Assembly (NCBI GenBank): GCA_023442525.1
Contig: JAEZZA010000020.1
Location: 100,776-164,775, forward strand
Direction of reading: 5' to 3'
DNA: 64,000 nucleotides
DNA from: Bacteroidota bacterium
Lineage (GTDB): Bacteria; Bacteroidota; Bacteroidia; Bacteroidales; UBA10428
Part shown: one piece after another, positions 8,123-30,349 of the stretch
How the letters are laid out: every line of letters begins with the position of its first letter
Position numbering within the stretch: the first letter of the stretch is position 1
Position numbers and translations under genes: made by a program
The notes under the pieces: model-generated
What the model saw: only the letters and a program-made list of their open reading frames with translations
What the model was told of the DNA's origin: nothing
Databases searched by the model: none

Positions 8123-8124
8123 TG

Positions 8125-11298: not shown

Positions 11299-11344
11299 AT
11301 TCGTTTATCGTGAAAAAACACTATTCTGATTGTTTGTAATGAAC

Positions 11345-12886: not shown

Positions 12887-12895
12887 ATCTTCTGT

Positions 12896-14482
12896 TTATT
12901 TTGGTTCGAAACGAATATAATCACCGCTGAAGGTACCTGGAATAAGCGTTTTAATGGTAATAGTATGCTCTGAATACTTTATGAAATTAATAGTACCTAC
13001 TTCTTTATTTCCAAATGGATTATCTCTTGAGGCCTGTACATCGGGATCGCTTGACAAATCGATAGTTCCTCCTACTTTCTTTCCGTCAATGAATATTTCT
13101 ATAACGGCATTCTCTTTTTCAGGGCTGTAGAAATCGGCTCCCAAAAACACAGTATAAGTACCCTGTACAATTTTCGGTATGCGGAATGAGAAGGTAAAAT
13201 CTCCTTCAAGCTGAATGCAGTCGTTACTCCATAGATTCAGGTTTTCCTCTTCGGAATACAATACATAGGTAAGTTCGCTTCCACTGTATGATATTGAATT
13301 CAAAAGTGTTGAATCTTCAACAAGGTAACTACCTGTAAGCAATTGATACTCTTCAAACAAGGGCCTGTCGAAAAACTCGTATGTTTGTATGGCACGCGAC
13401 GGTTGCTGTTGCCTTAATATCCTGTTGATAAAATGAATAACCCCGCTTTGTGTGATAACATTACTCGCATCGTAGTTTAAACCAACATAATTAATAAAAA
13501 TTGTATCCCCAACACCTCTAACGATAGTATCAAAGATCTCCTTACCCTTGTTGATCACAATATCGATACCCCTGCCGTCAACATGAAGCGGAATATCGGA
13601 ATAGGTAGAGTAGTTGGTTGAGACATTCTGAAAATCATCCATGAACATCCTTTCCGACAGAACATGATAAGCCACATAATTATACAAAGGATTCAGCGGA
13701 TTATCATAATCGGTACGTGACGGGCTGATGAGTTTGGCAAGTTGATTAAAAGAGTATATGCCCCTCTTTGCATAAATGGAATCATGTTCTACAAACAGTG
13801 TAAATGGGAGGGTATTCTCATCAACTTTTGGATTTATATTAAAAAGTGCGTCAAGTCCTGTAGTATCTACAGCCTGAATAAACAGGGTAAATCCCCCGTT
13901 CGACTTAAGCCATTGATAGGCAGTATTTGTAACCGGAGAAAGAGCTCTGTTGACGATGTGAATAAAGCCATTCGAAAGCTCTATGTTTGTTTGGATTACC
14001 GGAGCCTGGTTATTTATTTTATAATAAGCCGTATCGGGCTGGATGATGAAACTTACAGCCAGAAAATCCTCCGTGAGTGTATATTCAGAGAAAGCTCCGA
14101 AAGGAAAATCATTTGAATTAATGGCTTCGTTTACCACATGATACCTTGACAGGTACCAGATATATTCCTCATCATTCAATAATTCCTGAAGTGAACCATA
14201 ATTGCTTTTCATGATAAAGCTGTCTATAGCCTCATTGGTGGGAAGGAAAAGAGTATACCCGTCACCGTTGGGATTATAGGCACTTAACGTTTTGTCAAGA
14301 CCCGAACGTTCAAGGATAGAAATAAAACTAGAGAATTGATCCTTATGCTCTGTGATATAATCATAGATGGTTTGTTTCTCAACCTCTTCAAACTCGATGG
14401 GCAGGGTCTCAGGATCGCACGATGCAGCCATTGATATACATACACCGGCGACAATAATCAGAAAATATAAGATCTGCTTCAT
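12896..14482 (-). CDS. Fasciclin (FAS1 x2) domain lipoprotein with a C-terminal beta-sandwich
   Basis: Lipobox SMAASC. FAS1 motifs YTLFLPTNEAIDSF and NGFIHIVNRAL, then a second module FTLFVEHDS and SGVIHFINRIL. The C-terminus ends ...FSGDYIRFEP. Confidence 0.8.
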   Translation of the reverse strand: MKQILYFLIIVAGVCISMAASCDPETLPIEFEEVEKQTIYDYITEHKDQFSSFISILERSGLDKTLSAYNPNGDGYTLFLPTNEAIDSFIMKSNYGSLQELLNDEEYIWYLSRYHVVNEAINSNDFPFGAFSEYTLTEDFLAVSFIIQPDTAYYKINNQAPVIQTNIELSNGFIHIVNRALSPVTNTAYQWLKSNGGFTLFIQAVDTTGLDALFNINPKVDENTLPFTLFVEHDSIYAKRGIYSFNQLAKLISPSRTDYDNPLNPLYNYVAYHVLSERMFMDDFQNVSTNYSTYSDIPLHVDGRGIDIVINKGKEIFDTIVRGVGDTIFINYVGLNYDASNVITQSGVIHFINRILRQQQPSRAIQTYEFFDRPLFEEYQLLTGSYLVEDSTLLNSISYSGSELTYVLYSEEENLNLWSNDCIQLEGDFTFSFRIPKIVQGTYTVFLGADFYSPEKENAVIEIFIDGKKVGGTIDLSSDPDVQASRDNPFGNKEVGTINFIKYSEHTITIKTLIPGTFSGDYIRFEPK

Positions 14483-14485
14483 TTC

Positions 14486-15958
14486 TTAAAAGTTATAATA
14501 TGGATTCTGCACCAGGTTCTTGTTACGTTCCAATTCAGTTTTATATATAGGCAGGTACCAACTGAGAGGATTGGTCAGTTTGGTCTGTAAGATCCTCTTT
14601 TGTGTGGACGGGACGTTTCGTACCATTATTTCAATTAATTGGCTTTTGCGGGCATAATTATTCCGGCGACCCATTCTCATAAGGTCAAACCATCTTTTCC
14701 CTTCAAAGGCTAATTCTCTGGACCGTTCATCCAATATCGCATCCTCATAGGCTATAGGGGAGTTCGGTAAATCGAGTACCCTGCTGATGCCGGCTCTGGT
14801 TCGGATTCTAGCCAGAATTTCAGCGGCTTCAGGAAAACGTCCGATCTGTGATAATGCTTCAGCCTTCATCAGAAGGACATCGGCATACCTGTATACAATC
14901 CAGTTGGCACTGTTCTGAACGCTTCCCGGTCTGAACTGGAATCCGTCACCTTTAAAGCCAACGTATTTCCAAATAATATAATTCCCTTCGGAGTATTTCT
15001 TAATTGATTTTCCAATACCGCGAACAAGTTCCGGGGTTATTTTACTGTCGAAGATTTCAACTGCATAATCACTGGGATCTATATTGTGCGAGTTTTCGTT
15101 GGTTAAACCATAAAGACCGTTCCGCTGGCTCAATGCATCTTCAAACTGAAATTCAAAAATACCTTCATGTGTATTACCCTCAGAGAACAGGGTAAACCAA
15201 TCTTTTGGTTCCAGCAATATATATTTCCTGGAATTTTCAATATTCTGCACATATTCAATACATGTTTCGTAATCGAACATCCAGAGCGCAATATCAGCAA
15301 TCAGGGCGTCAATGGCAGCTTTGGTTGCCCGGCCTACGTTCTCATCCGGAGTAAGATAACCATCAACAGTTGCCCAGTTTCGGGCTCTGATCAGGTCATT
15401 TTTAATATTCTCCAGAATTTCATCCCCATTGGTCTTGGCCGGGTAAACATTGGTTCCGTCGGTAAGTGTAGGTTCGGTAACATAAGGAACGTCCTTAAAA
15501 ATGCGCACCAGGTAAAAATAACTCAGACTTCTCAGAAAATAGGCTTCGGACAGGTAACCATAAAGAATATAGTCAGTGAAGGTATTATCCTTCTGCTGCA
15601 CTTTTGGTGCGTAAGTAATAACCTCATTGCAGTAATTGATTACCTTATAAAAATTATTCCAGTTGCACATGTAATTATCGGGATAAATGCTCCCTTCCAT
15701 TATGCTTCGTTCCTCACCGGACTGATTATAATCACTCTTGAGTAAATCACCCCTCAGTTCTCCGTATTTGAACAATTGATCATCCATCGAAGCAAATGTG
15801 GCATACGTCCCCATGATCACGGCCTGAACATCCTCTTTTGTTTTCCAAAACTCCTCGCGGATCAATCCTTCACGCGGAGGTAATTCCAACCAATCGCCGC
15901 ATGAGAATTGGCTGGAAAGCAACACTATGGCCAGCAAAAGTTTAGTATATATTTTCAT
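14486..15958 (-). CDS. SusD/RagB-family outer-membrane lipoprotein (pair 1)
   Basis: Lipobox LSSQFSC. SusD signature ERSRELAFEGKRWFDLMRMGR. Located directly downstream of SusC. Confidence 0.9.
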   Translation of the reverse strand: MKIYTKLLLAIVLLSSQFSCGDWLELPPREGLIREEFWKTKEDVQAVIMGTYATFASMDDQLFKYGELRGDLLKSDYNQSGEERSIMEGSIYPDNYMCNWNNFYKVINYCNEVITYAPKVQQKDNTFTDYILYGYLSEAYFLRSLSYFYLVRIFKDVPYVTEPTLTDGTNVYPAKTNGDEILENIKNDLIRARNWATVDGYLTPDENVGRATKAAIDALIADIALWMFDYETCIEYVQNIENSRKYILLEPKDWFTLFSEGNTHEGIFEFQFEDALSQRNGLYGLTNENSHNIDPSDYAVEIFDSKITPELVRGIGKSIKKYSEGNYIIWKYVGFKGDGFQFRPGSVQNSANWIVYRYADVLLMKAEALSQIGRFPEAAEILARIRTRAGISRVLDLPNSPIAYEDAILDERSRELAFEGKRWFDLMRMGRRNNYARKSQLIEIMVRNVPSTQKRILQTKLTNPLSWYLPIYKTELERNKNLVQNPYYNF

Positions 15959-15975
15959 AAAAGATGATTTACATA

Positions 15976-18900
15976 TTAAAATCCAATAGATAAAGCCACG
16001 GTATAAATTCTGGGAGGAGGAGTATTGGCCTCATCCACGCCAATCCAGAAAGGATCCTTGGCATTTTGTCCAATTTCCGGATCCTGCCCTGTATAACGGG
16101 TCAAAGTAAAGAGCTTTCTGGAACTGAACGTAATTCCAAGAGTCCTTAAATTCAACTTCTGGCAGAATTCCTGTTTAAACCTGTATCCTATCATCATATT
16201 GAGCAATCTAAGATAATCGCCTTTCTCAACATAGCGGTCCGATCCAAGGTTGTTTGCCGGATGATCCATATAGGCACGTGGCAGCAGATCCGGCTGATTT
16301 TGTCCGTCAATCCTCCAGCGACGTAAAACGGCTTTACTCTGATTGTTTTTATTGTTCATACCCTGGGTTTGCATAGCGACTTTATTAATTATATCGAACC
16401 CGGTACGATAATGAAATCCTATATTGAATTCTATTTGTTTATATTTCACTGATGATCCGAAACCTCCGATAAAATCAGGGTTTGAATCACCTATATATAC
16501 CACGTCGTTCAGATCAATTCTTCCGTCATGGTTGATGTCTTCGTATTTGGCGTCGCCTCCCTTGAAAGTATAAGTACCGTATGACATCGGAACAGGATCG
16601 CCGTCATAATCCAGTATCAGTCCACCACTTGCATCACGGGCGTATGCATCGGCATCTGTGGCATAAACTCCCTTATACCTGAAACCAAAGAATGAACCTA
16701 TAGGCTGACCCTCCTGTAAACTCAGGGGGTACTCTTCATTACGGATTGAAGTGGATCTCTCACGGTTAAAATTATCCGGGAATTCACGGAATGAGTTGAC
16801 ATTATGAGAAGTATTGAAGTTTATCGATACCCTGAAGTTATTTTTGCGTATCACCCTCACATCGAACATCAACTCCCAACCGTCATTCACCATTTCTCCT
16901 GCATTCAGATAGCCAAGTTCCTCAAATCCTGAACTGGTGGGTATTTTGTAGTTTTGAAAAAGAATATTGGTAGTTACCTTGTGGTACATATCACCTTCCA
17001 TATACACTCTGTCGTTGAATAAACTCAATTCCATCCCGATATTCGACTGCGTTATGGATTCCCATTGAAGGTTATCAAGCTGTATTTGTGAATTGACGAT
17101 TCCTGGATCGTACAGATAGTCAGTTACCGAGGATTCGTAGCGTGCAAATCGTGCATACTGGTTGGTCGGCTGTCTTCCAGATACTCCCCACGATGCTCGT
17201 ATCATGCTTTCCCCAAGCCAATTCAGGTTACGTAGTATCGGTTCATTCGAAAACCTCCAGCCTAATGAAATTCCTTTAAATAATCCCCAGCGGTGTTCGG
17301 AACCAAAAGATGAGAATGCATCGGCGCGCATATTACCCTGTATCATATAACGATCTTTGTACTTGTAGTTCAGGTTAATCAAACCACCCATACCCCGCGA
17401 CTCCCACGATCCATCGCCGATCCAGTTTATCTGAGGATCTACTGCCGGATCAGTAATATCAATTGTCGGGAGCTTGTTACCCTGAAGATTCATCCATTCA
17501 CCTGATGCCTGATTGGTAATCCAGGTTATGGCACCTGTTATCACATGATCACTGGAATCCGGAAAGGGCACGTTAAATGCAAGCTGTGATTCCGTATTAA
17601 TGTAGGTCTCCATTGAATTACTTTCTTCCGCCTTGTTCACAGTCCATGCGAGCCAGTCGGTACCCAGTGCATTATAGGGCAAATAATTGAGAAATTTCTT
17701 TCCTATAACCTGAAATGACAAAGTTTCCCGGAATTTGATCCAGTTGTTTATGCCATAACTAAGAGTGAAATTATTCTGAAGGTAATTCTCCTTCCAGTCG
17801 TTCTTTCCCAGGTTGGCCACAGCTACCGGGTTGAAATAAGTACCACCGCCACCCTGATAGCTGTTAATAGGGGTAAAATATTCACCGGTTCGCCGGCCAT
17901 AAGCATCATATTCCCAGATGCTCATATTCGGAGCCTTTATATAGGCCATTTCACGTACGTTTCTTTCGTCAAGTTCCGCGTTACCATCAATATTTTTATT
18001 TGCATAACTAAACATTACCGAAAACAAGGTTTTCTTCGAAAGCTCGTAGTCGAGGTTCACACGGGTTGAAAAGTCTTTTGCACCGGTATTTATAGTTGTT
18101 CCTGTCTCATCAATATAGCTGAAAGAAGTAAAGTATCTCGTCTTTTCACCACCACCCGAAATATTGAAATAATGATCGTGTGTGCGGCCCGTTTGGGTAA
18201 GTGCACCCAGCCAGTCAGTATTTGCCGAATAATTGTAAAAACCGGCGTAATCCTTATCATAGGCTATCTCTGAAGGAATATCGAAAATACCTCTGCTATT
18301 GTGCCACTCTTCGAGCTGTAACATGATGTATTCATCACCGCTAAGCATTGGGATGGCTTTTGGCTGAAAATTGAGACTTCCCTTATATGTATAGTCAAAC
18401 TGTACTTTCCCCAATCTGCCTTTATAGGTTTCTATAAGAAGAACTCCGTCGGCACCTCTCGATCCGTACAGTGCTGTTGAGGCAGCATCTTTCAGGACTT
18501 CAATTGATTTAATATCCTGCAATGCAATGTTTAACTCATTACTCAGATCTTCCTGGTCGGCTGAGGCAAGATCAAAATCCTGCCTCATTTTATATTGAGG
18601 TATCCCGTCGATAACAACCAGTGGACTGTTGTTACCCATTGAACTTAGTCCGCGGATAACGATCTGAGAACCTGAACCCGGATCTCCTGATGCTGATATG
18701 ATATCCAGACCGGCTACTCTTCCCTGCAGGGCATCGGTAGCCGACAGGGCGCCCGATTCACGCATCTCGGCCATATCAATTTTTGTACTGGCCGAAGCCA
18801 CATCACGGTCGTCAATATTCATCAAGCTCAATTCCTGACGCTTACGTGCCGTTACAACAACCTCAGCTACCTGATTGACTTTCGGGTCAAGCTCAATAGT

Positions 18901-19194
18901 GAGATTAGTGGCAGCAACTGTTGGAATGGTTTTAGTATTGTAACCGATCATAACCACCCTTATTACGTTTTGCGGGTTGGAAACAGTAAATACAAAGTCA
19001 CCGTTAACGTCGCAAACGGTACCGTTTACGACACGGTTGTCCTTATCGTACTCAATAATATTTGCACCTATAACTGAAACGCGCTCGACTTTATCCAACA
19101 CTCGACCACGAATTACGATGTCGTTCTGTGCTTGTACAATGGAAAAACTGCAAAGCCACATTACGAGTAGCAGTCCACAGCAGATTTGTTTCAT
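15976..19194 (-). CDS. SusC-type TonB-dependent outer-membrane transporter (pair 1)
   Basis: 1072 aa. Signal peptide, carboxypeptidase-regulatory-like N-domain (IRGRVLDKVERVSVIGANI), plug (VVIDGIP), terminal ALSIGF. Confidence 0.9.
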   Translation of the reverse strand: MKQICCGLLLVMWLCSFSIVQAQNDIVIRGRVLDKVERVSVIGANIIEYDKDNRVVNGTVCDVNGDFVFTVSNPQNVIRVVMIGYNTKTIPTVAATNLTIELDPKVNQVAEVVVTARKRQELSLMNIDDRDVASASTKIDMAEMRESGALSATDALQGRVAGLDIISASGDPGSGSQIVIRGLSSMGNNSPLVVIDGIPQYKMRQDFDLASADQEDLSNELNIALQDIKSIEVLKDAASTALYGSRGADGVLLIETYKGRLGKVQFDYTYKGSLNFQPKAIPMLSGDEYIMLQLEEWHNSRGIFDIPSEIAYDKDYAGFYNYSANTDWLGALTQTGRTHDHYFNISGGGEKTRYFTSFSYIDETGTTINTGAKDFSTRVNLDYELSKKTLFSVMFSYANKNIDGNAELDERNVREMAYIKAPNMSIWEYDAYGRRTGEYFTPINSYQGGGGTYFNPVAVANLGKNDWKENYLQNNFTLSYGINNWIKFRETLSFQVIGKKFLNYLPYNALGTDWLAWTVNKAEESNSMETYINTESQLAFNVPFPDSSDHVITGAITWITNQASGEWMNLQGNKLPTIDITDPAVDPQINWIGDGSWESRGMGGLINLNYKYKDRYMIQGNMRADAFSSFGSEHRWGLFKGISLGWRFSNEPILRNLNWLGESMIRASWGVSGRQPTNQYARFARYESSVTDYLYDPGIVNSQIQLDNLQWESITQSNIGMELSLFNDRVYMEGDMYHKVTTNILFQNYKIPTSSGFEELGYLNAGEMVNDGWELMFDVRVIRKNNFRVSINFNTSHNVNSFREFPDNFNRERSTSIRNEEYPLSLQEGQPIGSFFGFRYKGVYATDADAYARDASGGLILDYDGDPVPMSYGTYTFKGGDAKYEDINHDGRIDLNDVVYIGDSNPDFIGGFGSSVKYKQIEFNIGFHYRTGFDIINKVAMQTQGMNNKNNQSKAVLRRWRIDGQNQPDLLPRAYMDHPANNLGSDRYVEKGDYLRLLNMMIGYRFKQEFCQKLNLRTLGITFSSRKLFTLTRYTGQDPEIGQNAKDPFWIGVDEANTPPPRIYTVALSIGF

Positions 19195-19239
19195 ATCGGG
19201 AAATAAGCTTAATTACAGTTTAAAACAATAAATCATTGA

Positions 19240-21594
19240 TTATTCAGTATCAAGTGCACTATAGATCAGTACATCATTAATCTCATGAAGAACTCCGTTG
19301 GTAACCAGAGTGGGAAAGGTCGTTGCCGCTGTAGGATTAATAATCCTGGCAGCCATTTTATTAGTAGCTGCGGATTCATTAACCGATAAATAAGTAGTGC
19401 CGTCGCTCCCCCTGAAATGTATTGCATCAGGTGTGGGAGTAATATATACTTTAGTATAAATCCGGCTGTATTGAGTTGATTTTTCATCAATTCGTGCCGT
19501 TTCATAATAGCCGGCCGGCATTCGTCCGTCGGTAAATATTAAAGCACCCTGTACGAAATGCATCATACAGAACTTCCTGAGCTGGTCGGTTGAATATCCA
19601 CTAAGGTCAACCGATGCAAGAGCAGCTTCTGAAGGAACAAAGACTGTGTAATTTTCGTCGGGCGACATGAAAGTATACGTGAATGTACTTGTATTAGCCA
19701 GTCCTGCTGAAACTAACAGGCTATGAAACGCGGGATAAGTTGATGAAATGATATTATAAATAGTTGCTGATGTGAATTTAAACCAGTTTGAAATATCATA
19801 GGTTTTGCCGTTATAAGCATTCGTCCCAGCAATCTCCTGGGGCTTAACTACAACAGTCGGGCCCACGAACCCAAAGGTGGTAGGACCACTACCCCGGAAT
19901 TCGCCGGTTTCGTTGTTTACTATAATGTAATTTCCGGCCAGATTACGGATAAATTCTTTTCTGGCATTTCCCCTGGGCAGATCAAGGGCGATATGGTTAA
20001 GAATAAGATTCCTGATGTCGGTAATAGTGGTAGGCTGACGCATATTCACTCTTCCGGAGGTATTGTATACAGAAAAATCTTCCCGGAAACTGTCATAAAT
20101 CAGCGATGAATCGATTGCCAGATTAGCGTCGTTTTCAACGAAAAGCATATAGGTGGCTTCGGGGCGTTTTAACGCAGAAAGCAATCCCGTGTGTCGAATG
20201 GCATTCATTGCCCTTGAATATCCCCGGCGCAGGTATACCGGACCGGTAACACTTGTGAAAGCATTGGGAACAAGCATCTTATTCACACCTATGAATGTAC
20301 AGTTGCTTGCGTATTTCTTTTCAACGATGGTTGACTGGTCAATTTCCATACGGTCGCTTTCACCATTCAGGAAACCCCGCTCAAAGTTACTTGGATATAA
20401 TGGTCCGCTGGCCATCTGAGTATTGATTATCATTTCCCTTATATGAGCAGGTGCCTGCTGTATCGATCCCCAGCGACCCGGTCCTACAAAGTACTCATTA
20501 ATGAACTCATCCATTGCTGCATCCGTTGGGGCAACCAGTCCGTGATGGTAACGTATGGTTACGTTCGAGGGTAAGCCAGTTACGCCTTTGGGAGCAAGCG
20601 TTCTTTCATTTACAATGGAAAAAGTGAGATCTGGATAAGAAATATCAAACAATGAATCTACTGCAAGTCCGAGATCGGCACCAGGCTGATCGTAAGTCTT
20701 GTCTTCATTATAAACCACTTCCGGGAATGTATTTACCAGGTCAAGAAATTTCTTGTAAGAATTGGGAGAATTGCTCAGAATCTGGTAGGCATTCTGAAGA
20801 GGTTCCACAACGCGGTCAACAATATGTACAAAACCGTTCTCCGAAAATATGTCAGCCTGAACTACTTTGGCATTGACAAAAAACAGATCTTTCTTCTCGA
20901 ATGGGCGCTCAAAATAGAATGAAAAATCTTCAGATTTAAGCTTGTAAATGTCAAAATATTCCTGGTAGAAGATTGGCGCAAACTTTCTGGAATCAGTAGC
21001 CTGAAGCCTGTGCCAGTTCGACTGTAAGGTATCCAGAATGACGTATTTTCTGCCTTCTTTTGGATCTGAAGCGTCGAGACGTACATTAATACCATACTTG
21101 GTATTCTTTTCACGTAAAAGGGTTTCCCTTTTATAGCCCTTTGGCTCATCATTATTTAAATCGAGGGAATCAATCCATCCATAGACATCGAGCTGCCTTA
21201 ATTGCTCCGCACTCCAGGGATTCTGTACAATGTGGAACTTTACAATCCGGCTGAGTTCTCCCAGTGGAATATCCTCAACTGATTTGTACTGTGGATGTTC
21301 CTGGAAATACAACTCAAATGCCTGATTGTTGGGTGCGAAAACAGTGTAACTACCTGAAACATTGATAACGCTGTCGTAACCGACAAGTGATATACATTTC
21401 GCGAATTCCGAAAGCTCAGGATTGGCCTTAATCTGAGTAAAAAGTTTCCCCGCAAGCCATGAAGGTCGCTCATAAATATCTTCCTTTTTACATCTGATTG
21501 CTGATAATGTAATTAATACCAACAAAAAAGGGAGTAATGCTTTCTTCATAATTACAGTATTGTTGAAAAGTTTAAAATTATATTTTTTTTTCAA
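19240..21594 (-). CDS. Multi-FAS1 (fasciclin) domain lipoprotein, first gene of the minus-strand PUL arm
   Basis: FAS1 motifs YTVFAPNNQAFELYF with NGFVHIVDRVVEPL, and YTVFVPSEAALASV with NGVLHEINDVLIY. The start is more likely the ATG at 21549 (MKKALLPFLLVLITLSAIRC lipobox). Confidence 0.8.
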   Translation of the reverse strand: MKKKYNFKLFNNTVIMKKALLPFLLVLITLSAIRCKKEDIYERPSWLAGKLFTQIKANPELSEFAKCISLVGYDSVINVSGSYTVFAPNNQAFELYFQEHPQYKSVEDIPLGELSRIVKFHIVQNPWSAEQLRQLDVYGWIDSLDLNNDEPKGYKRETLLREKNTKYGINVRLDASDPKEGRKYVILDTLQSNWHRLQATDSRKFAPIFYQEYFDIYKLKSEDFSFYFERPFEKKDLFFVNAKVVQADIFSENGFVHIVDRVVEPLQNAYQILSNSPNSYKKFLDLVNTFPEVVYNEDKTYDQPGADLGLAVDSLFDISYPDLTFSIVNERTLAPKGVTGLPSNVTIRYHHGLVAPTDAAMDEFINEYFVGPGRWGSIQQAPAHIREMIINTQMASGPLYPSNFERGFLNGESDRMEIDQSTIVEKKYASNCTFIGVNKMLVPNAFTSVTGPVYLRRGYSRAMNAIRHTGLLSALKRPEATYMLFVENDANLAIDSSLIYDSFREDFSVYNTSGRVNMRQPTTITDIRNLILNHIALDLPRGNARKEFIRNLAGNYIIVNNETGEFRGSGPTTFGFVGPTVVVKPQEIAGTNAYNGKTYDISNWFKFTSATIYNIISSTYPAFHSLLVSAGLANTSTFTYTFMSPDENYTVFVPSEAALASVDLSGYSTDQLRKFCMMHFVQGALIFTDGRMPAGYYETARIDEKSTQYSRIYTKVYITPTPDAIHFRGSDGTTYLSVNESAATNKMAARIINPTAATTFPTLVTNGVLHEINDVLIYSALDTE

Positions 21595-21972
21595 TTGTGA
21601 TACTTTTTGGTAAAATTTTTAACAATCACGAATCCTCAATAATTACTGCAAATAAATAGAGTCCAAAACATGAGAGACTTAGCGTATTTTTTACGATAAG
21701 TTTCCGTTTTTTTTATTCTTTAAAAAAACAAAGTATTGGTATTTTCAATAATATTTTTATTATTTTTAACTGGGTATTTAGCGTCTCTGATAATAAACGC
21801 TATAATTACTATAATATATAGGTATCAATTTCAATCCGACTAAGCTTGAATTCAGACAGGACTAGTACTAACTTAAAACCTATTAACCGTCAACATTAAA
21901 TCAACAGGCTAATAATTAACCTTTTAGTAACTGAATAACAAATTAATTTTTCTAACTAAAAAACCTAGCTTT

Positions 21973-24900
21973 ATGAGGACTAAATTTTTACTATTCTTCT
22001 CATTTCTGTTGTGCGGGGTATTGAACGCCCAGGTGGACGATACCATTCGCACATTGATCATTACGGAGGTGAGGCTTGATGACGCAAGGCGCGGGTACGT
22101 TGAAATAGCCAACGTCGGCGATGCGACCGTCAACCTGTCATCTTTTGAGATTGGTCGAATTGATGCCTGGACTGCTCCATGGTCTACTCCGACAGCGAAC
22201 TGGATGATGCTGCCTGATAAGGATCTGGCTCCCGGCGAAACTTTCCTTATTGCTGCCATGCGCGATTTCCGTCTGGAAATGTACAAGTTAAATCCGGAAG
22301 AATTCGACCCGATGGAAGCCAATAAGGCAGAATTCTGGACACTTGCCGATCTCCAGTTACATGTTGATGAATCAAACTACAGTCCGGTTAATGACTCGAT
22401 CAGTCCTGCTGCCGGAAGAGAGCTGCTTACAGTATGGAGCGGCCGCGATTGCTTGTACCTGAGATATCATATCGGTGGTGATTCAGCAGTTATCGACCAG
22501 GTTAACGGTATCTTCGGAGGTGACGGAAATATTCGTCCTGATCATCCGAATGGCGGTAAAGGCCCTGTTAACGTGGCAGGTGTAACTGATGCTACCAATA
22601 CCTCTACCCTTGTAAGGAAATTCAAGGTTACGACCGGTAATACGGACTTCGCATCCTCAAAAGGTGAAGACCTTACCGAATCGGAATGGATTCCTATTCC
22701 GCACCAGGCTAGCGGCAGATGGGCTGACAACGTAAGAAGACTTTTCTGGACAGCCGGTTTCCATGGCAATGCAGTTCTTACCGAAACAACGCTGAAACCT
22801 CTTGCAAAGTATGAATCTGTTATTGATGTGGATTATGCAGGAAAGAAAATTACTGTTCCCTGGGGCGTAAGACGTGACGACTCGATTATGTTCATGTTTG
22901 AAAAAGTTCCGGGTCTGGCATGGCATTATGACTATGTTGCTTCATACGAAGACTCTGCTTATGTTTCAGCAAGAACAGGCGACACCCTTACCGTGTATGC
23001 CACAGGTAATGAACTTACTATGCGCAAATTCGGAATCGAGGTAGCTCCTCCAACCGACGATGCCAAGATCGTTGTTCCCAGGAAAGCTCCTAACGGAGAT
23101 GGCTTCTTTGACGGTGTTGACGATCCTCCATATACCATCAGCGATGGTCTTGTAAAGGATACCATCGGTACCTACCGTTGGGGTGGTATTCCGTTTGCTA
23201 CCCGTATCGATACACTGATGAAATATATTGAAGTTCCTGAAGGTGCTTCAGCAGAAATCGTTTACGTGGACACACCGGGAAGAACCGATCTCAAAGACGG
23301 TGATGTTCTGAAAGTGACTGCAGCTGATAATTCCACCAAGGAATACTATATAAAAGTTGATAAATACAGGAAGAGCCATAATGCATTCCTGAGTGCAATT
23401 ACATGGCCTGATATCCCCGAGGATTACAGGAATGTAAAAGGCTGGCTGGGTGATACGGTTCCTAATTTCTCACCTACGGTTTATAACTATATAGCTAATG
23501 TTCCTTCGGATGTACAGGGTATTCCGGCTTTGGTTGGAAAGAACCAGGCTCTCGAAGGCAAACATTCGGTTATCGTAGCCACGAACCTCGACGGCAGTCC
23601 TGCCAATCAGACTGTAACCTTCAATACGGTTGCCGAAGATGATACGACTTTCCGTACCTATACCGTACAATTGATTAAGGAAAAAGATCCCAGCACAATT
23701 CAACCCTGGGACGGTGATGCATTCATATCAGAATGGGTGTTCTGGGAGCAGTGGGATGCTACCAACTTCATTGAAGTTGCAAACCCAAGACCCAACGACA
23801 TCGATATGAGTCAGTATATGTTCGTTGTGACCTGGGAAAACAATCCGGCTACTGCCATTTCCGAAACCCGTACACAAGCTGACCAGTGGTTAAACCGCTA
23901 CCGTCGCTATGTACCAGGTTACAAATGGGTTGACAGCCTTACCTGGACAACCAATCCCGGTATGCTTACTCCCGACCTGGCAGTTAACCCTGTTGTAAAA
24001 GGTGGCGATGTATTTGTAATTGGCAGCATTACTGGTGGTGGTGCACATCCGCTCGACTGGAGTGCTTACAAACAATGCGATGTTAACCTGGCCGATAACA
24101 ATGCAAGATTCCCGAACCCATGGGGTGAAAATATAGGCGAAGGAATGGCTCACTGGATGAACCAGAATATTTACATGTTCAAAATACTGAACGATTCGAT
24201 AACCCGTGGTTTGAAGAATGCCAACGATCCGAACGACTTTGAACTTATAGATGTACTCGGTAACGGCGATGGTACCGATATGACAATCGGTGGACGTAAT
24301 GTTGATATGATTGAAACTTATATCAGAAAACCGTCGATCTATAAAGGAAATGCTGTAATAAAAGGTTCTGCCGGAGATACACCGGAAACTTCCGAATGGA
24401 TAATGAGAAATGCAGCATACTATGCCAGCCTTGGTGCAGGATGGCCCGATCAGATATGGTGGGTTGTTAATGATATCGGAATTCATCTGTTGAATGAAGT
24501 AACCATTTTCAAATCAACTGTAAGTTCTGCTATTTATAAAGTAAGTCCGGGATATACCGAAGAAGAAACCATACGTGGTATTGTTGATGGTACAACTGTC
24601 AGCGAATTCTTTGGTAATCTGATTAAAGCCGACCCGGGTCAGCAACTGAACGTTGTGAGCGCTACCAGCGGCGAAACTCTTGCCGATGACGATGCTCCGG
24701 CCAACGGTGATACCCTGGTTGTTCTTTCAGCCGATCTGAAGAATACATCCAAATATATCCTTGAAGTTACAGCAGAAGGTTTGAATAGCGATGCAGTTCT
24801 TGTATCAGATGCATGGACTATTACCGTTGATGGTGCTGAAGGTGTTATTTCGGATTTCGATCCTCTGATTACTTTCAAGGAATTCATGGACAACATCGAA

Positions 24901-25854
24901 GTTCCATCAGGTGCATTAGTAATTCCTACTTATCCCGATGGTAAATATGTTCCTTACAAGATGTTGAACTATGATACTACTTATGCGCCAGTATTGGTGA
25001 GCGACAATATCACCATTCTGGTAACAGCTGAAAACGGTGTTGATAAGATTACTTATACACTTCAGCCGAACCATTCTGAAACTGATGCATTCGTAACTTC
25101 ATCCATGTTTGGAGTAGATCAGAACCTGTCGATTATCTTCCTGGTACCCGACGGTATCCCCGTTTCTTCATTCCTGTCCTATCTCATCCCAAGTACCGGA
25201 GCTGAAATCGAACTCAGAGATAAGTTCGGATTCGTCAGAGAGATGGGTAATGTAATGCTGGACGACTCACTATACGTGACCGCTGAAGATGGAGTAACTA
25301 TACGCAAGTATGGAATTCAGATGCTTGGTGGCCTTACTGTAGAGGATATTGCTTATGTAATTTCCGAGGTTTATCTTGTTGATCAGGAAACCATGTGGAT
25401 AACTGGTGAAAATATCACTACTACACTTAGCGTTGCTGATTTCAAAGCAAATCTTATCGCTTCAACCGGAGCAACAATTGCTGTAACCAATGCCAGCGGA
25501 GCTCCAAAGAACTCCGGTAACCTGGCTGAGGGTGACCTTGTAAAGGTTATTTCTGCAAACGGTTTGACAATTGTTACTTACCAGATTGATGTGATCCTGG
25601 TAGGTCTTGACGACAAGTCACAGGATGACGTACAGATATTCCCGAACCCCAGCAGAGGATTGTATAATCTGAAGGGCGTGAAGGCCGGTTCAAGAATACA
25701 GGTACATAACATTCTGGGTGTGAAAGTTGCTGAAAAGGTAGCAATCGCCTACAGCGAAACTATCTCGATTGAAAAGGAAACCAACGGTATTTATTTCATC
25801 ACTGTAAGTGATAATGATAACGTTGTTGGCCGCTATAAAGTTGTTAAAAAATAA
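21973..25854 (+). CDS. Large secreted non-catalytic protein: two lamin-tail-like domains, a cadherin-like beta-sandwich, repeated ~80-aa modules and a type A T9SS C-terminal sorting domain
   Basis: Signal peptide ending LNAQ. LTD-like LIITEVRLDDARRGYVEIANVGDATVNLSSFEI and AFISEWVFWEQWDATNFIEVANPRPNDIDMSQYMF. CTD VQIFPNPSRG...GIYFITV...YKVVKK (nt 25630-25851). Confidence 0.7.
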   Translation: MRTKFLLFFSFLLCGVLNAQVDDTIRTLIITEVRLDDARRGYVEIANVGDATVNLSSFEIGRIDAWTAPWSTPTANWMMLPDKDLAPGETFLIAAMRDFRLEMYKLNPEEFDPMEANKAEFWTLADLQLHVDESNYSPVNDSISPAAGRELLTVWSGRDCLYLRYHIGGDSAVIDQVNGIFGGDGNIRPDHPNGGKGPVNVAGVTDATNTSTLVRKFKVTTGNTDFASSKGEDLTESEWIPIPHQASGRWADNVRRLFWTAGFHGNAVLTETTLKPLAKYESVIDVDYAGKKITVPWGVRRDDSIMFMFEKVPGLAWHYDYVASYEDSAYVSARTGDTLTVYATGNELTMRKFGIEVAPPTDDAKIVVPRKAPNGDGFFDGVDDPPYTISDGLVKDTIGTYRWGGIPFATRIDTLMKYIEVPEGASAEIVYVDTPGRTDLKDGDVLKVTAADNSTKEYYIKVDKYRKSHNAFLSAITWPDIPEDYRNVKGWLGDTVPNFSPTVYNYIANVPSDVQGIPALVGKNQALEGKHSVIVATNLDGSPANQTVTFNTVAEDDTTFRTYTVQLIKEKDPSTIQPWDGDAFISEWVFWEQWDATNFIEVANPRPNDIDMSQYMFVVTWENNPATAISETRTQADQWLNRYRRYVPGYKWVDSLTWTTNPGMLTPDLAVNPVVKGGDVFVIGSITGGGAHPLDWSAYKQCDVNLADNNARFPNPWGENIGEGMAHWMNQNIYMFKILNDSITRGLKNANDPNDFELIDVLGNGDGTDMTIGGRNVDMIETYIRKPSIYKGNAVIKGSAGDTPETSEWIMRNAAYYASLGAGWPDQIWWVVNDIGIHLLNEVTIFKSTVSSAIYKVSPGYTEEETIRGIVDGTTVSEFFGNLIKADPGQQLNVVSATSGETLADDDAPANGDTLVVLSADLKNTSKYILEVTAEGLNSDAVLVSDAWTITVDGAEGVISDFDPLITFKEFMDNIEVPSGALVIPTYPDGKYVPYKMLNYDTTYAPVLVSDNITILVTAENGVDKITYTLQPNHSETDAFVTSSMFGVDQNLSIIFLVPDGIPVSSFLSYLIPSTGAEIELRDKFGFVREMGNVMLDDSLYVTAEDGVTIRKYGIQMLGGLTVEDIAYVISEVYLVDQETMWITGENITTTLSVADFKANLIASTGATIAVTNASGAPKNSGNLAEGDLVKVISANGLTIVTYQIDVILVGLDDKSQDDVQIFPNPSRGLYNLKGVKAGSRIQVHNILGVKVAEKVAIAYSETISIEKETNGIYFITVSDNDNVVGRYKVVKK

Positions 25855-25877: not shown

Positions 25878-25904
25878 AAGCCCCGCTTCGGCGGGGCTTT
25901 TTTA
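25878..25904 (+). terminator. Rho-independent terminator after the LTD/T9SS gene
   Basis: AAGCCCCGC-TTCG-GCGGGGCTT followed by TTTTT. Confidence 0.8.
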
Positions 25905-25946
25905 TTATATTTATGGCACATAATTAATATTACTCAATCAGCTATT

Positions 25947-26900
25947 ATGAAAAAGATGCTTTTCTGGTCATTCATTATTATTATTATGAATGTCACAGTT
26001 CTTATGGGACAGCAACCGGTGAAAATTCACGGGAAATTGTCCGTTCAGGGGGTACAACTAATGGATGAAAAAGGTAAGCCGGTAATGCTTCAGGGCGTCA
26101 GCTACGGCTGGCATAATTGGTGGCCGAGATTTTATAATAAGGAATCGGTTACGTGGTTGGCAAACGACTGGAATTGCACTGTTGTCAGGGCCGCGATGGG
26201 TGTTGGTCCAAAAGGATCTTATCTTGATAAAACCGAATGGTCGCAGAAGCTTATCGAAGATGTTGTTGAAGGGGCCATTGAAAACGACGTCTACGTTATA
26301 ATAGACTGGCACAGTCACCAGGTTGAAACCGAGGCGGCTAAGAAATTTTTCGCTCAAATGGCTAAAAAATACGGTAAATATCCTCACGTCATTTATGAGA
26401 TTTTCAATGAACCGGTTCACGATTCATGGGAGGTTATTAAAAACTATTCGATTGAAGTCATCAAAGCCATACGTGAACACGATCCGGATAATATCATCCT
26501 GATTGGCAGTCCTCACTGGGATCAGGATGTCCACATTGCAGCCGACAGCCCCATAGAGGGTTATAAAAACCTGATGTATACACTTCACTTTTATGCAGCT
26601 ACTCATAAACAGGATCTTCGCGAAAGGGGAAATTATGCATTAAGTAAAGGTCTTCCGCTTTTCGTTTCGGAATCAGCAGGAATGTCAGCCAACGGAGATG
26701 GTCCTATTAATTATGAAGAGTGGAATCTTTGGATCGACTGGATGAAGAAAAACAAAATTAGCTGGGTTTCCTGGTCAATTGCCGATAAAAACGAAACATG
26801 CTCCATGTTGCTTCCTTCTGCAGCATCAACCGGGGGATGGAAAGAAACGGATATGAAGGAATCAGGGATTAAAACCCGTGAATTACTGAAAAAGAAATAA
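25947..26900 (+). CDS. Glycoside hydrolase family 5 endo-beta-1,4-glucanase-like enzyme
   Basis: Start placed at MKKMLFWSF (signal peptide). The upstream part of the listed ORF covers the terminator. GH5 motifs: VIIDWHSH, acid/base IYEIFNEP, HFYAATH, nucleophile region LFVSESAG, SWVSWS. Confidence 0.85.
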   Translation: MKKMLFWSFIIIIMNVTVLMGQQPVKIHGKLSVQGVQLMDEKGKPVMLQGVSYGWHNWWPRFYNKESVTWLANDWNCTVVRAAMGVGPKGSYLDKTEWSQKLIEDVVEGAIENDVYVIIDWHSHQVETEAAKKFFAQMAKKYGKYPHVIYEIFNEPVHDSWEVIKNYSIEVIKAIREHDPDNIILIGSPHWDQDVHIAADSPIEGYKNLMYTLHFYAATHKQDLRERGNYALSKGLPLFVSESAGMSANGDGPINYEEWNLWIDWMKKNKISWVSWSIADKNETCSMLLPSAASTGGWKETDMKESGIKTRELLKKK

Positions 26901-27013: not shown

Positions 27014-30000
27014 ATGAAAAAAATTTACATAACAACTGGTTTGGCAGGGTTGCTGCATCTGTTGTTGATCACGGGAATTTACGCCCAATCGGTTGTAATT
27101 AATGTCAATACGACTGCCGAAAAGAAAGCCATTTCACCTTATATTTTTGGTAAGAACAACAGTCTTTCAGATAATTTTCTTGGATCGGGAGATCTCAGTG
27201 CCAGCCAATGGCAGCGATTGAAAGACATGGGCATCAAAATGTTCAGGGAAAACGGCGGTAATAATTCAACCAAGTACAATTGGAGAAGGAAACTGTCGAG
27301 CCACCCCGACTGGTATAACAATGTATATGCCCACGACTGGGGTTATGCAGCCAGGTCGTTACAGCAAAACATACCTTCGGCTCAGGGTATGTGGGCTTTT
27401 CAGCTAATTGGAAAAGCTGCAAAAACCTCTGCTCACAATTTTAACGACTGGGGTTACAATGGTTCAAAATGGTGGGAGGGCTGCGGTCAGAATCTTGCCG
27501 GAGGCGGCGTGGTTAATCCCGCTGGTGGCACGGATGCCCTGGTCGAAGGAAACCCTGATTTGTACCTGGAGACCTGGAATGCAGATTCAACAACCGGAAT
27601 TCTTGATCATTGGTTTGGACCAGATGGTATCGGACTTGACAGCAACAAGATACTTTACTGGAGCATGGATAACGAACCTGAAATTTGGAACGGTACACAC
27701 GATGACGTATGGCCTGTACAGCCTTCAGCTGAAGAATTCATGCAAATGTATTTTGCAACGGCTAAAAAAGCCCGGGCTAAATTTCCGGGAATAAAGCTCA
27801 CTGGTCCTGTTGTGGCTAATGAATGGCAATGGTATTGCTGGGCAGGCGATCTGATTTCCTATAAAGGGAAGAAATACCCCTGGCTGGAGTACTTTATTCT
27901 CAGAGTGGCCGAAGAACAGCAGTTAAGCGACATCAGGCTACTCGATGTACTTGATATTCATTTTTATCCAAACGAAACCGACCCGGCACAAATAGTTCAG
28001 TTACATCGAATATTTTTTGACTCAACATACGTTTACCCGGGTGCCAATGGCATAAAGAAAACAGGATCAAGCGGCTGGGACAATTCTCTTAATAAAGAAT
28101 ATATATTTAAGCGTTGTAACGCCTGGCTTGCAAAGTATATGGGGGCCGGTCACGGCGTAAAACTGGCAGTCACCGAAACTGCAATTAAGAAAAGAGACGA
28201 TCCTGATTTGACAGCCAACTGGTATGCCTCCACATTGGGTGAATTTGCACGAAACGGGGTTGAAATATTCACTCCATGGGACTGGGTGACCGGTATGTCG
28301 GAAGTAGTGCATCTTTTTACTCACTACTGTAAACCAAACATACTTCCCGCAATATCTTCAAACGAAAATTATGTTTCAGCCTACCCTACCATCAATAATT
28401 CAGGCGATTCAATAACTGTTTTTTTTGTTAACAGGCATCTTAAAGATTCGAAGCCCGTTACATTATATCTTGAGAATTTCTATGTGGATGACGGCCCTTA
28501 TAATTTTTACACCCTTTCGGATCTGCCGGCATCGGAAACCTTTGTTTCTCATACCCAAAATGCTCTCAACCTGAGTACAGTAGTAGTTAAGGACAATATT
28601 ATCCAATTAATACTGGATCCGTTATCGGTTTCGGCTCTTGTCCTGAAAAGGGGCAAGTTTGATATTGCACCTTCACTTATCGACACCTTTGCTACCCAGG
28701 CCACCAAAGATCTTTATGAATTCCTTAAGTCTCAGTTCGGCAATCACATTATCTCGGGGCAGACGCACGACTATTATAATCAACTGAAAACCGTTGCCGG
28801 TAAATCACCTATGCTCCGGGCAGGCGATTTTCAGCACTATACACAGGGATACCCATATCTGTGGTCAAATGAAATCGGCGGTCACACTTACGGGTACGAC
28901 ACTCAGGCTAATACAGTGAGCACGCTCATTTCGTGGTACAATGGTACCGATAAAAAAGGAATCGTTTCCATGCAATGGCACTGGCACGATCCCCTGAGCG
29001 ATTCTACCAGTAATGTCAGCACCAATACTTTCTATACCGATCAGACCAGTTTCGATATCCGGAGGGCGGTTATCCCGGGAACCTTTGAATATGACTGCGT
29101 AATTCGGGATATTGACAGTATTGCCACACAGCTTAAAAAATTCCAGTCAGCCGGAATTCCGGTATTATGGCGACCCCTGCACGAAGCTGGCGGAGGATGG
29201 TTCTGGTGGGGAGCTCACGGCCCCGAACCCTGCCTGGCACTTTGGGATATTCTTATTGAACGTTTGAAAAATCATCATCAACTCCATAATCTGATTTGGG
29301 TTTGGTCAAGTCCCGAGCCGGATTGGTACCCCGGTAACGATAAGGTGGATATCATTGGATATGATTCCTATCCGGGTGCGTTCAATTATACCAACCAGAA
29401 GGCAATATTTGATAACCTGTACACCATTACCGATGGTGAAAAGCTTATCGCGATGACTGAAAACGGTCCTATTCCTGATCCCGTGGCGTGCATTGAAGGT
29501 GATTCCCCCTGGTTGTTTTTCATGTCATGGAATAATCTGGTGGAAACTCAAAACACAACAGATCATATCCGTAGTGTTTATAATAATCCTCTGGTGGTTA
29601 AACTTGAAAGTTTCGATCCTCCGGAATACAGTGTTACTATTAAGTTGCTTCGTGATCTGACTTTTGAACCTCTGCAATCCAACGCAGTTGTATTTAACGG
29701 GGTTACCGAAGTTACTGATTTTGAAGGTGAAGTTACTTATACTGTGACTCCCGGAAGTTATGATTACCTGGTACAGCTAACATCATACGAAAGTAAGGAG
29801 GGTACTTTCGAAATTACATCGGATACATCCTTTACCATATTATTACAGCAAACTCATGCAAATATAAGGATCCGGTTAAGAGAAGAGTCTCGTCCGGTTG
29901 CAAACGCCGTTGTGGCATTGAATGGCGACACCATGTTGACCAGTAGCCTTGGAGACGCCGTGTACAATCAACGTCCGGTTAGTCAAATATATTCCTACAC

Positions 30001-30349
30001 TGTAAATAAAGAAGGATATGAAGAGCTTTCAGGCACGGTACAACTGGCGCGTGATACAATTGTACAACTTGAAATGACCCGAATTGTACTGTCAGCAGGA
30101 TATGGATCCGGAGATATAAAATTCACCATCTGGCCAAATCCTGCTGATGAATACGTTCATTTCGGATTGCCGGACGGCAATCAGCCCGTTCAGGTACAAA
30201 TTACAGGCGTAAACGGCGGTTTTACGAAAAATACATCGGTACAGAATCCGCCCTGGCGAATCAGTGTAAACGACCTGGCTCCGGGGATTTATGTTCTGCA
30301 GGTTATTTGTAAGGAATCGGTTTATAAGGGGCTGTTTTCAAAACAGTGA
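27014..30349 (+). CDS. Bifunctional GH44 (endoglucanase/xyloglucanase-like) - GH26 (beta-mannanase-like) enzyme with two beta-sandwich domains and a type A T9SS sorting domain
   Basis: GH44-like (aa ~27-546): ENGGNNSTKYNW, YWSMDNEPEIW, LDVLDIHFYP, KLAVTETA. GH26-like (aa ~552-864): QWHWH, VLWRPLHEAGGGWFWWG, IAMTENG. CTD IWPNPADEYVHF...GIYVLQV (nt 30116-30346). Confidence 0.8.
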   Translation: MKKIYITTGLAGLLHLLLITGIYAQSVVINVNTTAEKKAISPYIFGKNNSLSDNFLGSGDLSASQWQRLKDMGIKMFRENGGNNSTKYNWRRKLSSHPDWYNNVYAHDWGYAARSLQQNIPSAQGMWAFQLIGKAAKTSAHNFNDWGYNGSKWWEGCGQNLAGGGVVNPAGGTDALVEGNPDLYLETWNADSTTGILDHWFGPDGIGLDSNKILYWSMDNEPEIWNGTHDDVWPVQPSAEEFMQMYFATAKKARAKFPGIKLTGPVVANEWQWYCWAGDLISYKGKKYPWLEYFILRVAEEQQLSDIRLLDVLDIHFYPNETDPAQIVQLHRIFFDSTYVYPGANGIKKTGSSGWDNSLNKEYIFKRCNAWLAKYMGAGHGVKLAVTETAIKKRDDPDLTANWYASTLGEFARNGVEIFTPWDWVTGMSEVVHLFTHYCKPNILPAISSNENYVSAYPTINNSGDSITVFFVNRHLKDSKPVTLYLENFYVDDGPYNFYTLSDLPASETFVSHTQNALNLSTVVVKDNIIQLILDPLSVSALVLKRGKFDIAPSLIDTFATQATKDLYEFLKSQFGNHIISGQTHDYYNQLKTVAGKSPMLRAGDFQHYTQGYPYLWSNEIGGHTYGYDTQANTVSTLISWYNGTDKKGIVSMQWHWHDPLSDSTSNVSTNTFYTDQTSFDIRRAVIPGTFEYDCVIRDIDSIATQLKKFQSAGIPVLWRPLHEAGGGWFWWGAHGPEPCLALWDILIERLKNHHQLHNLIWVWSSPEPDWYPGNDKVDIIGYDSYPGAFNYTNQKAIFDNLYTITDGEKLIAMTENGPIPDPVACIEGDSPWLFFMSWNNLVETQNTTDHIRSVYNNPLVVKLESFDPPEYSVTIKLLRDLTFEPLQSNAVVFNGVTEVTDFEGEVTYTVTPGSYDYLVQLTSYESKEGTFEITSDTSFTILLQQTHANIRIRLREESRPVANAVVALNGDTMLTSSLGDAVYNQRPVSQIYSYTVNKEGYEELSGTVQLARDTIVQLEMTRIVLSAGYGSGDIKFTIWPNPADEYVHFGLPDGNQPVQVQITGVNGGFTKNTSVQNPPWRISVNDLAPGIYVLQVICKESVYKGLFSKQ

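Follow-up and report, generated by a model that had tools for sequence, protein, structure and literature searches.

The subject of this analysis is a single large gene and its surroundings in a 64-kb window (64,000 nucleotides of contig JAEZZA010000020.1, positions 100,776 to 164,775 of the forward strand, from the Bacteroidota assembly GCA_023442525.1; all coordinates below count from the first letter of this window). The gene, which runs from 21973 to 25854 on the + strand, encodes a protein of 1293 residues that has the features of type IX secretion system (T9SS) cargo and contains two domains related to the lamin-tail domain (LTD); it will be called the LTD-family protein here. Its extent was taken from the open reading frame (ORF) listing and the translation, and is matched by more than 500 full-length homologues (about 1260-1330 residues; 43-77% identity among the best 120 listed). 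Both the span and the length agree with those given in an earlier reading of the same DNA (the initial annotation), and every peptide string quoted there is present in the translation. Two antisense ORFs that overlap the gene, at 21924-22322 and 23890-24486, were taken as spurious.

At the N-terminus, residues 1-19 (MRTKFLLFFSFLLCGVLNA, followed by Q; 21973..22029, + strand) form a Sec signal peptide, read by eye from the translation and backed by conservation across the family, the A19-Q20 pair at the cleavage point being near-invariant in the alignment. The signal peptide as a whole is unusually conserved, its mean pairwise identity of 58% equalling that of the best-conserved domains, and the majority residue at position 14 in the family is Cys. 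At the other end of the chain, residues 1219-1293 (25627..25851, +) constitute a type A T9SS C-terminal sorting domain (CTD): the NCBIfam type A model TIGR04183 matches residues 1222-1293 with 33.9 bits against a cut-off of 23, Pfam PF18962 matches residues 1222-1285 with 33.0 bits against a cut-off of 27, and when the whole protein was compared with the PDB using phmmer the CTD alone was matched (8glj_D, E 0.0013). Both signals had been proposed in the initial annotation, and both are borne out, the signal peptide by eye only. The window also encodes PorP/SprF (54702-55604, - strand) and a cargo protein with a type B CTD, from which it follows that the organism has a T9SS; this 1195-residue cargo (CHU_C) lies directly upstream of PorP/SprF, the two together spanning 54702-59191 (-) in what is a classic pairing. 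The LTD-family protein therefore shows the full set of features used here to recognise type A T9SS cargo, namely a CTD above cut-off at the extreme C-terminus, a signal peptide (by eye) and T9SS genes in the window; it is probably exported to the cell surface via the T9SS, and its attachment to the outer surface is probably through the type A CTD.

Between these two signals lie the domains that give the protein its name. The first, LTD1 (residues 24-245; 22042..22707, +), is a lamin-tail-type beta-sandwich with a large insertion, identified by its Pfam match, by AlphaFold2 strands predicted at high pLDDT and by homology to LTD2; it is followed by a short conserved helical extension reaching about residue 282. 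Its match to PF00932 covers residues 26-97 and, at 36.8 bits, exceeds the gathering score of 34.3. The second, LTD2 (residues 578-846; 23704..24510, +), is a divergent and elaborated LTD, placed by profile comparison with LTD1 (hhalign), by its AlphaFold2 model, by Foldseek and by sub-threshold Pfam matches. In the window protein it reaches 14.4 bits for PF00932, below the gathering score; sub-threshold LTD matches recur in the LTD2 region in 16 of 29 homologues (best E 0.0019), and in the homologue P0121 the equivalent region scores 32.8 bits. The profile comparison of LTD1 with LTD2 gives a probability of 94.9% (E 4.7e-8) over 173 columns, and the two have an E-x-x-N core motif in common. 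It is because of this comparison, and not because of any similarity of fold (lamin immunoglobulin (Ig) folds appear in the Foldseek list for LTD2 only as weak matches, with E 0.25-1.6 and TMt 0.37-0.51), that LTD2 is counted as an LTD, an assignment by homology to LTD1 rather than by Pfam score and one that is made at the level of sequence profiles. The pair of lamin-tail-like domains seen in the initial annotation is therefore real, with the qualification that LTD2 is divergent. Both are about 220-270 residues long, roughly twice the length of a canonical LTD, and in the family alignment their conserved insertions contain many invariant residues (Trp, Tyr, Asp, Lys, Arg and His); the invariant residues of LTD2 are Y646, P648, G649, W652, W658, D741, K748, R785, W809, W824 and H838. 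Literature searches on bacterial LTDs turned up no assigned function.

Most of the remaining chain is made up of six small modules, M1 to M6, together with one further beta-sandwich segment. Self-BLASTP of the protein detected no internal repeats; repeat detection relied on an alignment of 58 homologues followed by profile-profile comparison with hhalign. The four C-terminal modules, M3 (residues 847-935; 24511..24777, +), M4 (945-1034; 24805..25074, +), M5 (1038-1120; 25084..25332, +) and M6 (1125-1209; 25345..25599, +), are clearly homologous to one another, the comparisons giving 99.8% for M5 with M6 (E 1e-29), 98.3% for M3 with M6, 97.1% for M3 with M5, 96.9% for M4 with M6 and 96.1% for M4 with M5. 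M2 (393-464; 23149..23364, +) joins them at about 98% (97.9% with M5, 97.5% with M6), and M1 (283-360; 22819..23052, +) joins through M2 (92.1%, E 6e-7). All six of the repeated modules claimed originally are in this way linked by homology, far beyond chance. In addition, the N-terminal half of the protein, residues 36-475, aligns to residues 592-1131 with 96.9% probability, and the profile evidence indicates that the architecture is the product of an ancient internal duplication, with the order LTD plus modules, beta-sandwich, LTD plus modules, CTD.

As regards the fold of these smaller parts, the label has been kept deliberately loose, that of a small beta module containing a single short helix, because the matches to the PDB and to Pfam are non-significant or scattered. 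A module profile run against the PDB gave non-significant matches only, to the N-terminal domain of 'putative glycoside hydrolases' from the Joint Center for Structural Genomics (4het, E 0.024; 4jrl, E 0.16), while Pfam searches of individual module sequences gave weak assignments to Cadherin-like (7 of 66), DUF6242 (7 of 66) and ThiS (1 of 66). The name 'ThiS' that the Joint Genome Institute attaches to the homologue P0056 was rejected as spurious. The segment between M2 and LTD2 (residues 470-572; 23380..23688, +), described originally as a cadherin-like beta-sandwich, is indeed all-beta in the model, but its cadherin-like character is weakly supported: PF12733 matches residues 497-567 with 16.7 bits against a cut-off of 24.2 (E 0.0099), DUF6242 matches with E 0.0023, and a precomputed PF12733 match is present in about 10 of the 120 listed homologues.

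Modelling of residues 21-1215 with AlphaFold2 (1195 residues, 119 sequences) gave a mean pLDDT of 89 and a pTM of 0.74, which is high for ten domains and suggests that the predicted inter-domain packing is fixed; LTD2 modelled alone reached a pLDDT of 91.9 and a pTM of 0.91. When LTD2 was compared with the PDB by Foldseek, the sole significant neighbour was 4q1z, the DUF4876 protein BT_1938 (E 1.9e-5, probability 1.0, TMq 0.40), behind which the lamin folds mentioned above were found. The same entry was the one specific match of the whole model; the remaining matches, to multi-Ig, S-layer, cadherin and complement proteins, were generic and had TM scores of 0.05-0.17. The similarity does not extend to recognisable sequence, in that neither the whole protein (E<=1) nor 29 LTD2 regions (E<=0.1) matched DUF4876 (PF16215) in Pfam. 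Matches of the LTD2 profile to acetaldehyde dehydrogenases in the PDB (E 0.16-1.2) were set aside as spurious, reflecting a shared Y-[VI]-P-G-Y string.

No hydrolase, lyase, protease or other catalytic domain was found in Pfam, NCBIfam, the PDB sequence search or Foldseek, in agreement with the original statement that no such signature was visible; nor did Foldseek assign the LTD regions to a catalytic fold or to a known carbohydrate-binding module (CBM), either of which would have told against the scaffold or substrate-binding role suggested there. It could be argued that the LTD insertions make up an active site of a new kind for polysaccharide, and hence a new CAZy family, since they contain invariant charged or polar residues (D175, Q176 and R215 in LTD1; D679, D741, K748, R785 and H838 in LTD2) and the gene is always beside those for carbohydrate-active enzymes (CAZymes). 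However, neither fold nor sequence bears any likeness to a hydrolase, lyase or esterase, the domains are beta-sandwiches with loops in which no cleft-forming domain is recognised, and the domains to which relatives are fused (see below) are all non-catalytic, so that a cryptic enzyme is the least probable of the explanations weighed here.

The gene is followed by a strong intrinsic terminator (25878..25910, also given as 25878-25899; + strand), AAGCCCCGC-TTCG-GCGGGGCTT and then a T-run, located by a pattern scan and by RNA folding. It starts 24 nt past the stop codon; 7 of the 9 bp in its stem are G-C pairs, its loop is TTCG, and the T-run comes next. The predicted RNA folds with -29.1 kcal/mol (z -4.69), and none of 200 shuffled sequences folded as well. 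Of 78 homologous loci, 75 have an equivalent hairpin with T-run no more than 150 nt past the end of the gene, as compared with 25 of 483 other genes of at least 200 residues in the same loci (5%), or 11 of 360 (3%) for genes that are followed by one on the same strand. Moreover, the stem GAGCCYG...CRGGCTC is common to 34 of 79 family hairpins, though the proteins are only 40-50% identical, and occurs in only 2 control terminators. Rfam gave only sub-threshold matches for the hairpin, to small RNA and leader families with a terminator at their end, and on this comparison it is best described as a plain terminator belonging to no known RNA family; that role does not in itself explain why the sequence of the stem should be conserved. 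Apart from AT-rich words, a k-mer search of the upstream regions returned only ATATTTGTT, which contains TATTTG, was found in 14 of 74 and is possibly a -7 promoter box.

Given the conservation of this terminator, the gene must be regarded as a separate or strongly attenuated transcription unit and not simply as the first cistron of a hydrolase operon; the original description of it as heading the glycoside hydrolase (GH) arm, if taken to mean one operon, cannot be maintained. Genes for major structural subunits offer a precedent for excess expression linked to a terminator, and by analogy with them we infer that the LTD-family protein is produced in far greater amounts than the enzymes encoded downstream.

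A HMMER scan of 1.84 billion representative sequences found 561 clusters (at 50% identity) with E<=0.001, of which 273 had E<=1e-30. Where homologues carry a name it is 'hypothetical protein' or 'T9SS type A sorting domain-containing protein', P0056 being the exception, and literature searches found no description of the family. A scan of one genome per species yielded 182 relatives, from which 78 loci were kept; all 78 are labelled Bacteroidota, and most come from Prolixibacteraceae (Mariniphaga, Draconibacterium, Tangfeifania, Sunxiuqinia, Maribellus) or from metagenome-assembled genomes (MAGs) of other Bacteroidales. It is common for there to be several paralogues per genome, sometimes in tandem. 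One Prolixibacteraceae MAG (L074) has family members at 10001-13924 and 14537-18460, another contig (L063/L064) has paralogues about 15 kb apart, and in a further locus (L038, 15822-18644) a 941-residue protein that begins with an LTD is encoded two genes downstream of the family member.

Across 63 homologous loci, the gene that comes next on the same strand encodes a GH5 enzyme in 34 cases, 28 of these 34 having CBM6, and most of the other next genes encode GH44, GH26, GH43, GH140-like apiosidase, BNR/sortilin, beta-helix, DUF4832 or sulfatase proteins. The association of homologues with glycan loci, the lack of which would have counted against the earlier interpretation, is accordingly well borne out. 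Many Prolixibacteraceae copies adjoin secA and have GH5 as their only downstream genes. Elsewhere (L036, L040, L050, L075) the downstream sets differ, comprising GH140-like apiosidase, GHL15 with GH31, BNR/sortilin (one with a CTD) and beta-helix proteins; enzymes that attack polymers of the plant cell wall typically have domains of these families.

Some longer relatives exist as fusions, and here the additional domains are exclusively non-catalytic ones of adhesin or binding type (SprB, CUB, PKD, Laminin_G_3, LRR and HYDIN-like Ig), the CTD being kept in all cases. The fusions to SprB repeats and CUB domains, taken together with the large, repetitive, CTD-bearing architecture and with the terminator that separates the gene from the GH genes, raise the question of whether the protein is a motility or attachment adhesin of the SprB/RemA kind, used for gliding or colonisation and merely situated beside CAZyme genes. 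We consider this improbable, given that adhesins of the SprB type normally have a type B CTD and are paired with PorP/SprF, whereas the LTD-family protein has a type A CTD, and given also that its same-strand adjacency to CAZyme genes has been kept across 40-50% sequence divergence.

In the window itself, the gene directly downstream encodes a GH5 endoglucanase (25947..26900, +) with a signal peptide and no CTD, identified by PF00150 (E 9e-56) and by matches to the GH5 endoglucanases 5i2u, 5ihs and 1h11 in the PDB. The ORF as mechanically listed starts at 25872 and so overlaps the terminator hairpin; because the terminator sits within the 5' end of that ORF, translation probably begins at the ATG at 25947, which opens a signal peptide (MKKMLFWSF...). 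The N-terminus has no lipobox and the protein lacks a CTD or any obvious docking module, and the enzyme may, on these features, be periplasmic rather than surface-exposed. The second gene downstream (27014..30349, +) encodes an enzyme combining GH44 with GH26 (beta-mannanase) and ending in a T9SS CTD, on the evidence of Pfam and of PDB matches to GH26 (3zm8, 6hpf) and GH44 (3fw6, 2yih) structures. The initial annotation had treated this GH44-GH26 enzyme as the adjacent gene and as the specific partner of the LTD-family protein; Pfam shows that the direct neighbour is GH5, and across loci it is likewise GH5, often with CBM6, that is the conserved partner. Since the GH5 matches endoglucanases and the second enzyme matches GH26 mannanases and GH44, the likely target of the enzymes is beta-1,4-glucan or glucomannan.

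On the opposite strand lies the divergent arm of a polysaccharide-utilisation locus (PUL; 6248..21594, -), assigned by Pfam. Starting nearest the LTD gene it encodes a fasciclin protein (19240-21594, -), SusC (15976-19194, -), SusD (14486-15958, -), two more fasciclin proteins (12896-14482 and 11345-12886, both -), a second SusC-like protein (8125-11298, -) and, outermost, a second SusD-like protein (6248-8122, -). There are in all three fasciclin (FAS1) proteins and two SusC/SusD-like pairs, and the order fasciclin-SusC-SusD-fasciclin-fasciclin recurs in locus L002 and about 13 others. No regulator is evident within the PUL itself; further away in the window there are two large sensor proteins (49065-52208 and 59304-62963, both -), one a fusion of Reg_prop/Y_Y_Y beta-propeller sensor domains to a SpoIIE phosphatase and the other a 1219-residue histidine kinase.

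The presence of a divergent SusC/D arm in the window and in many other loci has a bearing on the structural match noted earlier. DUF4876 proteins are surface lipoproteins predicted to be the substrate-binding lids of non-SusC TonB-dependent transporters (bioRxiv 10.1101/2023.03.17.533168), and as BT_1938 is LTD2's only significant structural neighbour it is conceivable that the LTDs dock in a similar way on SusC-like or other TonB-dependent transporters, passing substrate on to them as an accessory of outer-membrane transport. Against such an arrangement, SusC/D are absent within 10 kb in about half of the loci, the LTD-family protein differs from DUF4876 proteins in not being a lipoprotein, and the structural match is limited to a TMq of 0.40, with no DUF4876 signal from Pfam in the sequence; we regard it as highly improbable.

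The reading that is best supported by this body of evidence is that the LTD-family protein works with plant-cell-wall CAZymes as an abundant, surface-anchored, T9SS-delivered protein that is not itself catalytic. More specifically, we would put at a little short of an even chance the proposal that it is an abundant non-catalytic surface protein binding glycan or fibre. A binding role is proposed because there is no enzyme domain, because the fusions are of adhesin type, because the closest structure is that of a presumed ligand-binding surface protein, because invariant aromatic residues are plentiful in the LTD insertions and because CAZyme genes are a conserved feature of the neighbourhood. 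The analysis itself shows the domain anatomy and the export signals, the lack of a recognisable enzyme domain, and the conservation of neighbourhood and terminator; that the protein is anchored at the surface, is highly abundant and binds glycan, and that the LTDs are what binds, are all steps that we infer. In outline, the protein would undergo Sec export and then type IX secretion, and would be attached to the surface via its type A CTD; the two elaborated LTD beta-sandwiches would be its working parts, binding plant-cell-wall beta-glycans or fibres, while the six beta modules and the cadherin-like sandwich would form a rigid body presenting both LTDs. Substrate or cell would in this way be held beside the GH5, GH44 and GH26 enzymes and the fasciclin-SusC/D import machinery, and the conserved terminator would make the LTD-gene transcript far more abundant than the transcripts of the enzymes downstream. 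Taken as a whole, then, the initial annotation was sound in what it observed, and its interpretation is partly supported: the absence of an enzyme domain, the T9SS signals and the link to glycan genes hold, while the choice of GH44-GH26 as partner and the idea of one operon do not.

There are nevertheless several considerations that weigh against glycan binding by an abundant PUL component. No known CBM family or fold was matched in Pfam or Foldseek (the sole CBM-like Foldseek match, 4b9p, was rejected as noise, with E 1.5 over 49 columns). The terminator is the single line of evidence from which high abundance is deduced. SusC/D lie within 10 kb in only 22 of the 46 loci that have enough flank; on these counts and those of the neighbouring enzymes, the conserved core is the LTD-family protein plus GH5, and linkage to a PUL is frequent rather than universal, so that to the question of whether homologues are always PUL-linked the answer is that adjacency to glycan genes is conserved and proximity to SusC/D is not. 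Furthermore, when proteins paired with GH5 were compared with those paired with other CAZymes, similarity between the two groups proved, domain by domain, to be as high as that inside each group, except that it was 6-7% lower for the LTDs, and no specificity-determining domain was found in this comparison of GH5-linked with other paralogues. The level of conservation is much the same from one domain to the next (45-58%), and the LTDs are not singled out. Such a lack of divergence between groups is unlike what is seen for substrate-specific binders such as SusD and the surface glycan-binding proteins (SGBPs), and a generic role fits it better; these patterns of between-group and uniform conservation are at least equally well accommodated by a substrate-independent role, whether that of a generic tether to plant cell walls or cellulose or that of a structural or scaffold platform.

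The last of these was weighed as an explanation in its own right. The LTD-family protein might be a generic structural or scaffold protein, in the form of an abundant T9SS-anchored coat, an S-layer-like assembly or a docking platform, which, regardless of substrate, would arrange or shield secreted enzymes at the cell surface and not itself bind glycan. The pTM of 0.74 for a 1195-residue, 10-domain model, suggesting fixed packing, would be in keeping with this, as would the uniform conservation over all domains, the absence of group-specific divergence among paralogues beside different CAZymes, the conserved terminator with its suggestion of abundance, and the fact that the S-layer proteins Sap, EA1, SbsC and HPI head the whole-model Foldseek list. 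However, these S-layer matches are generic multi-Ig ones with TM scores of 0.1-0.17, too low to be accepted as membership; several paralogues per genome, each by a CAZyme cluster, would be unusual for a coat protein; and the window GH5 has neither a CTD nor an obvious docking module. We judge the scaffold explanation rather unlikely on balance.

A more ambitious version of the glycan-binding proposal, which can be put forward tentatively and which we would regard as possible but doubtful, is that the elaborated LTDs are a new and unclassified carbohydrate- or fibre-binding module, and that the protein serves a GH5-centred degradation system in Prolixibacteraceae and related Bacteroidales as an abundant, T9SS-anchored tether to plant cell walls, with a stoichiometry relative to the enzymes that is set by the conserved terminator, and with the stem GAGCCYG...CRGGCTC under selection. 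If correct, this would be the first function for a bacterial lamin-tail domain. Even the less specific binding proposal would, if true, give bacterial LTDs a testable role and would mean that Bacteroidota of sediments and digesters, which are important degraders of plant biomass, use an additional, enzyme-free and T9SS-delivered component in their polysaccharide-utilisation systems; functional work should be feasible in the cultured carriers Mariniphaga anaerophila and Tangfeifania diversioriginum. Independently of function, this is a sizeable uncharacterised family in which domain classes that are individually familiar are combined in a distinctive duplicated LTD architecture, with a remarkably conserved 3' terminator. 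The near-universal presence of that terminator makes a clear case of conserved differential expression inside a CAZyme gene array, and warns against treating such arrays as simple operons.

It remains to compare the protein with systems already described. Bacterial LTD proteins include extracellular nucleases and the CotH/LTD proteins of cellulosomes, LTD modules being listed among the cellulosomal components of Clostridium thermocellum (PMC6083626). The present protein resembles these in that LTD1 passes PF00932 and LTD2 is homologous to LTD1, but differs in that its LTDs are about twice the canonical size, have conserved insertions and are duplicated in one chain, alongside six beta modules specific to the family. 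DUF4876 BT_1938 (4q1z), to which both LTD2 and the whole model have their best structural match, is likewise a Bacteroidota protein exposed at the surface and is presumed to bind a ligand; it is, however, a lipoprotein of about 390 residues as against a T9SS cargo of 1293, the two have no Pfam sequence signal in common, and TMq is 0.40.

A further comparison is with the SusE/F-like SGBPs, which are non-catalytic proteins with multiple beta-sandwiches and are encoded next to SusC/D and glycoside hydrolases; the role proposed here, that of holding substrate at the surface, is also theirs. SGBPs are lipoproteins. The LTD-family protein, in contrast, has a T9SS CTD and no clear lipobox, so that it lacks the lipoprotein signal peptide that goes with SGBP membership, and its position next to susC/susD is not constant either, the gene being divergent from a SusC/D arm in the window and about half of the family's loci being without SusC/D within 10 kb; in addition, SGBPs diverge with substrate, whereas the LTD family shows little divergence between CAZyme contexts. 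Finally, there is the T9SS cargo of cellulolytic Bacteroidota, such as the cellulases and adhesins of Cytophaga hutchinsonii, where T9SS substrates are documented as surface-anchored (PMC12860637), and the multimodular cellulases of 'Ca. Paraporphyromonas polyenzymogenes'. Here the likeness lies in the type A CTD and in being encoded with GH5, GH26 and GH44, and the difference in that those proteins are enzymes or carriers of known CBMs, whereas the LTD-family protein has neither a catalytic domain nor a known CBM. It belongs to no described family among those tested, but in function it may resemble an SGBP or an adhesin.

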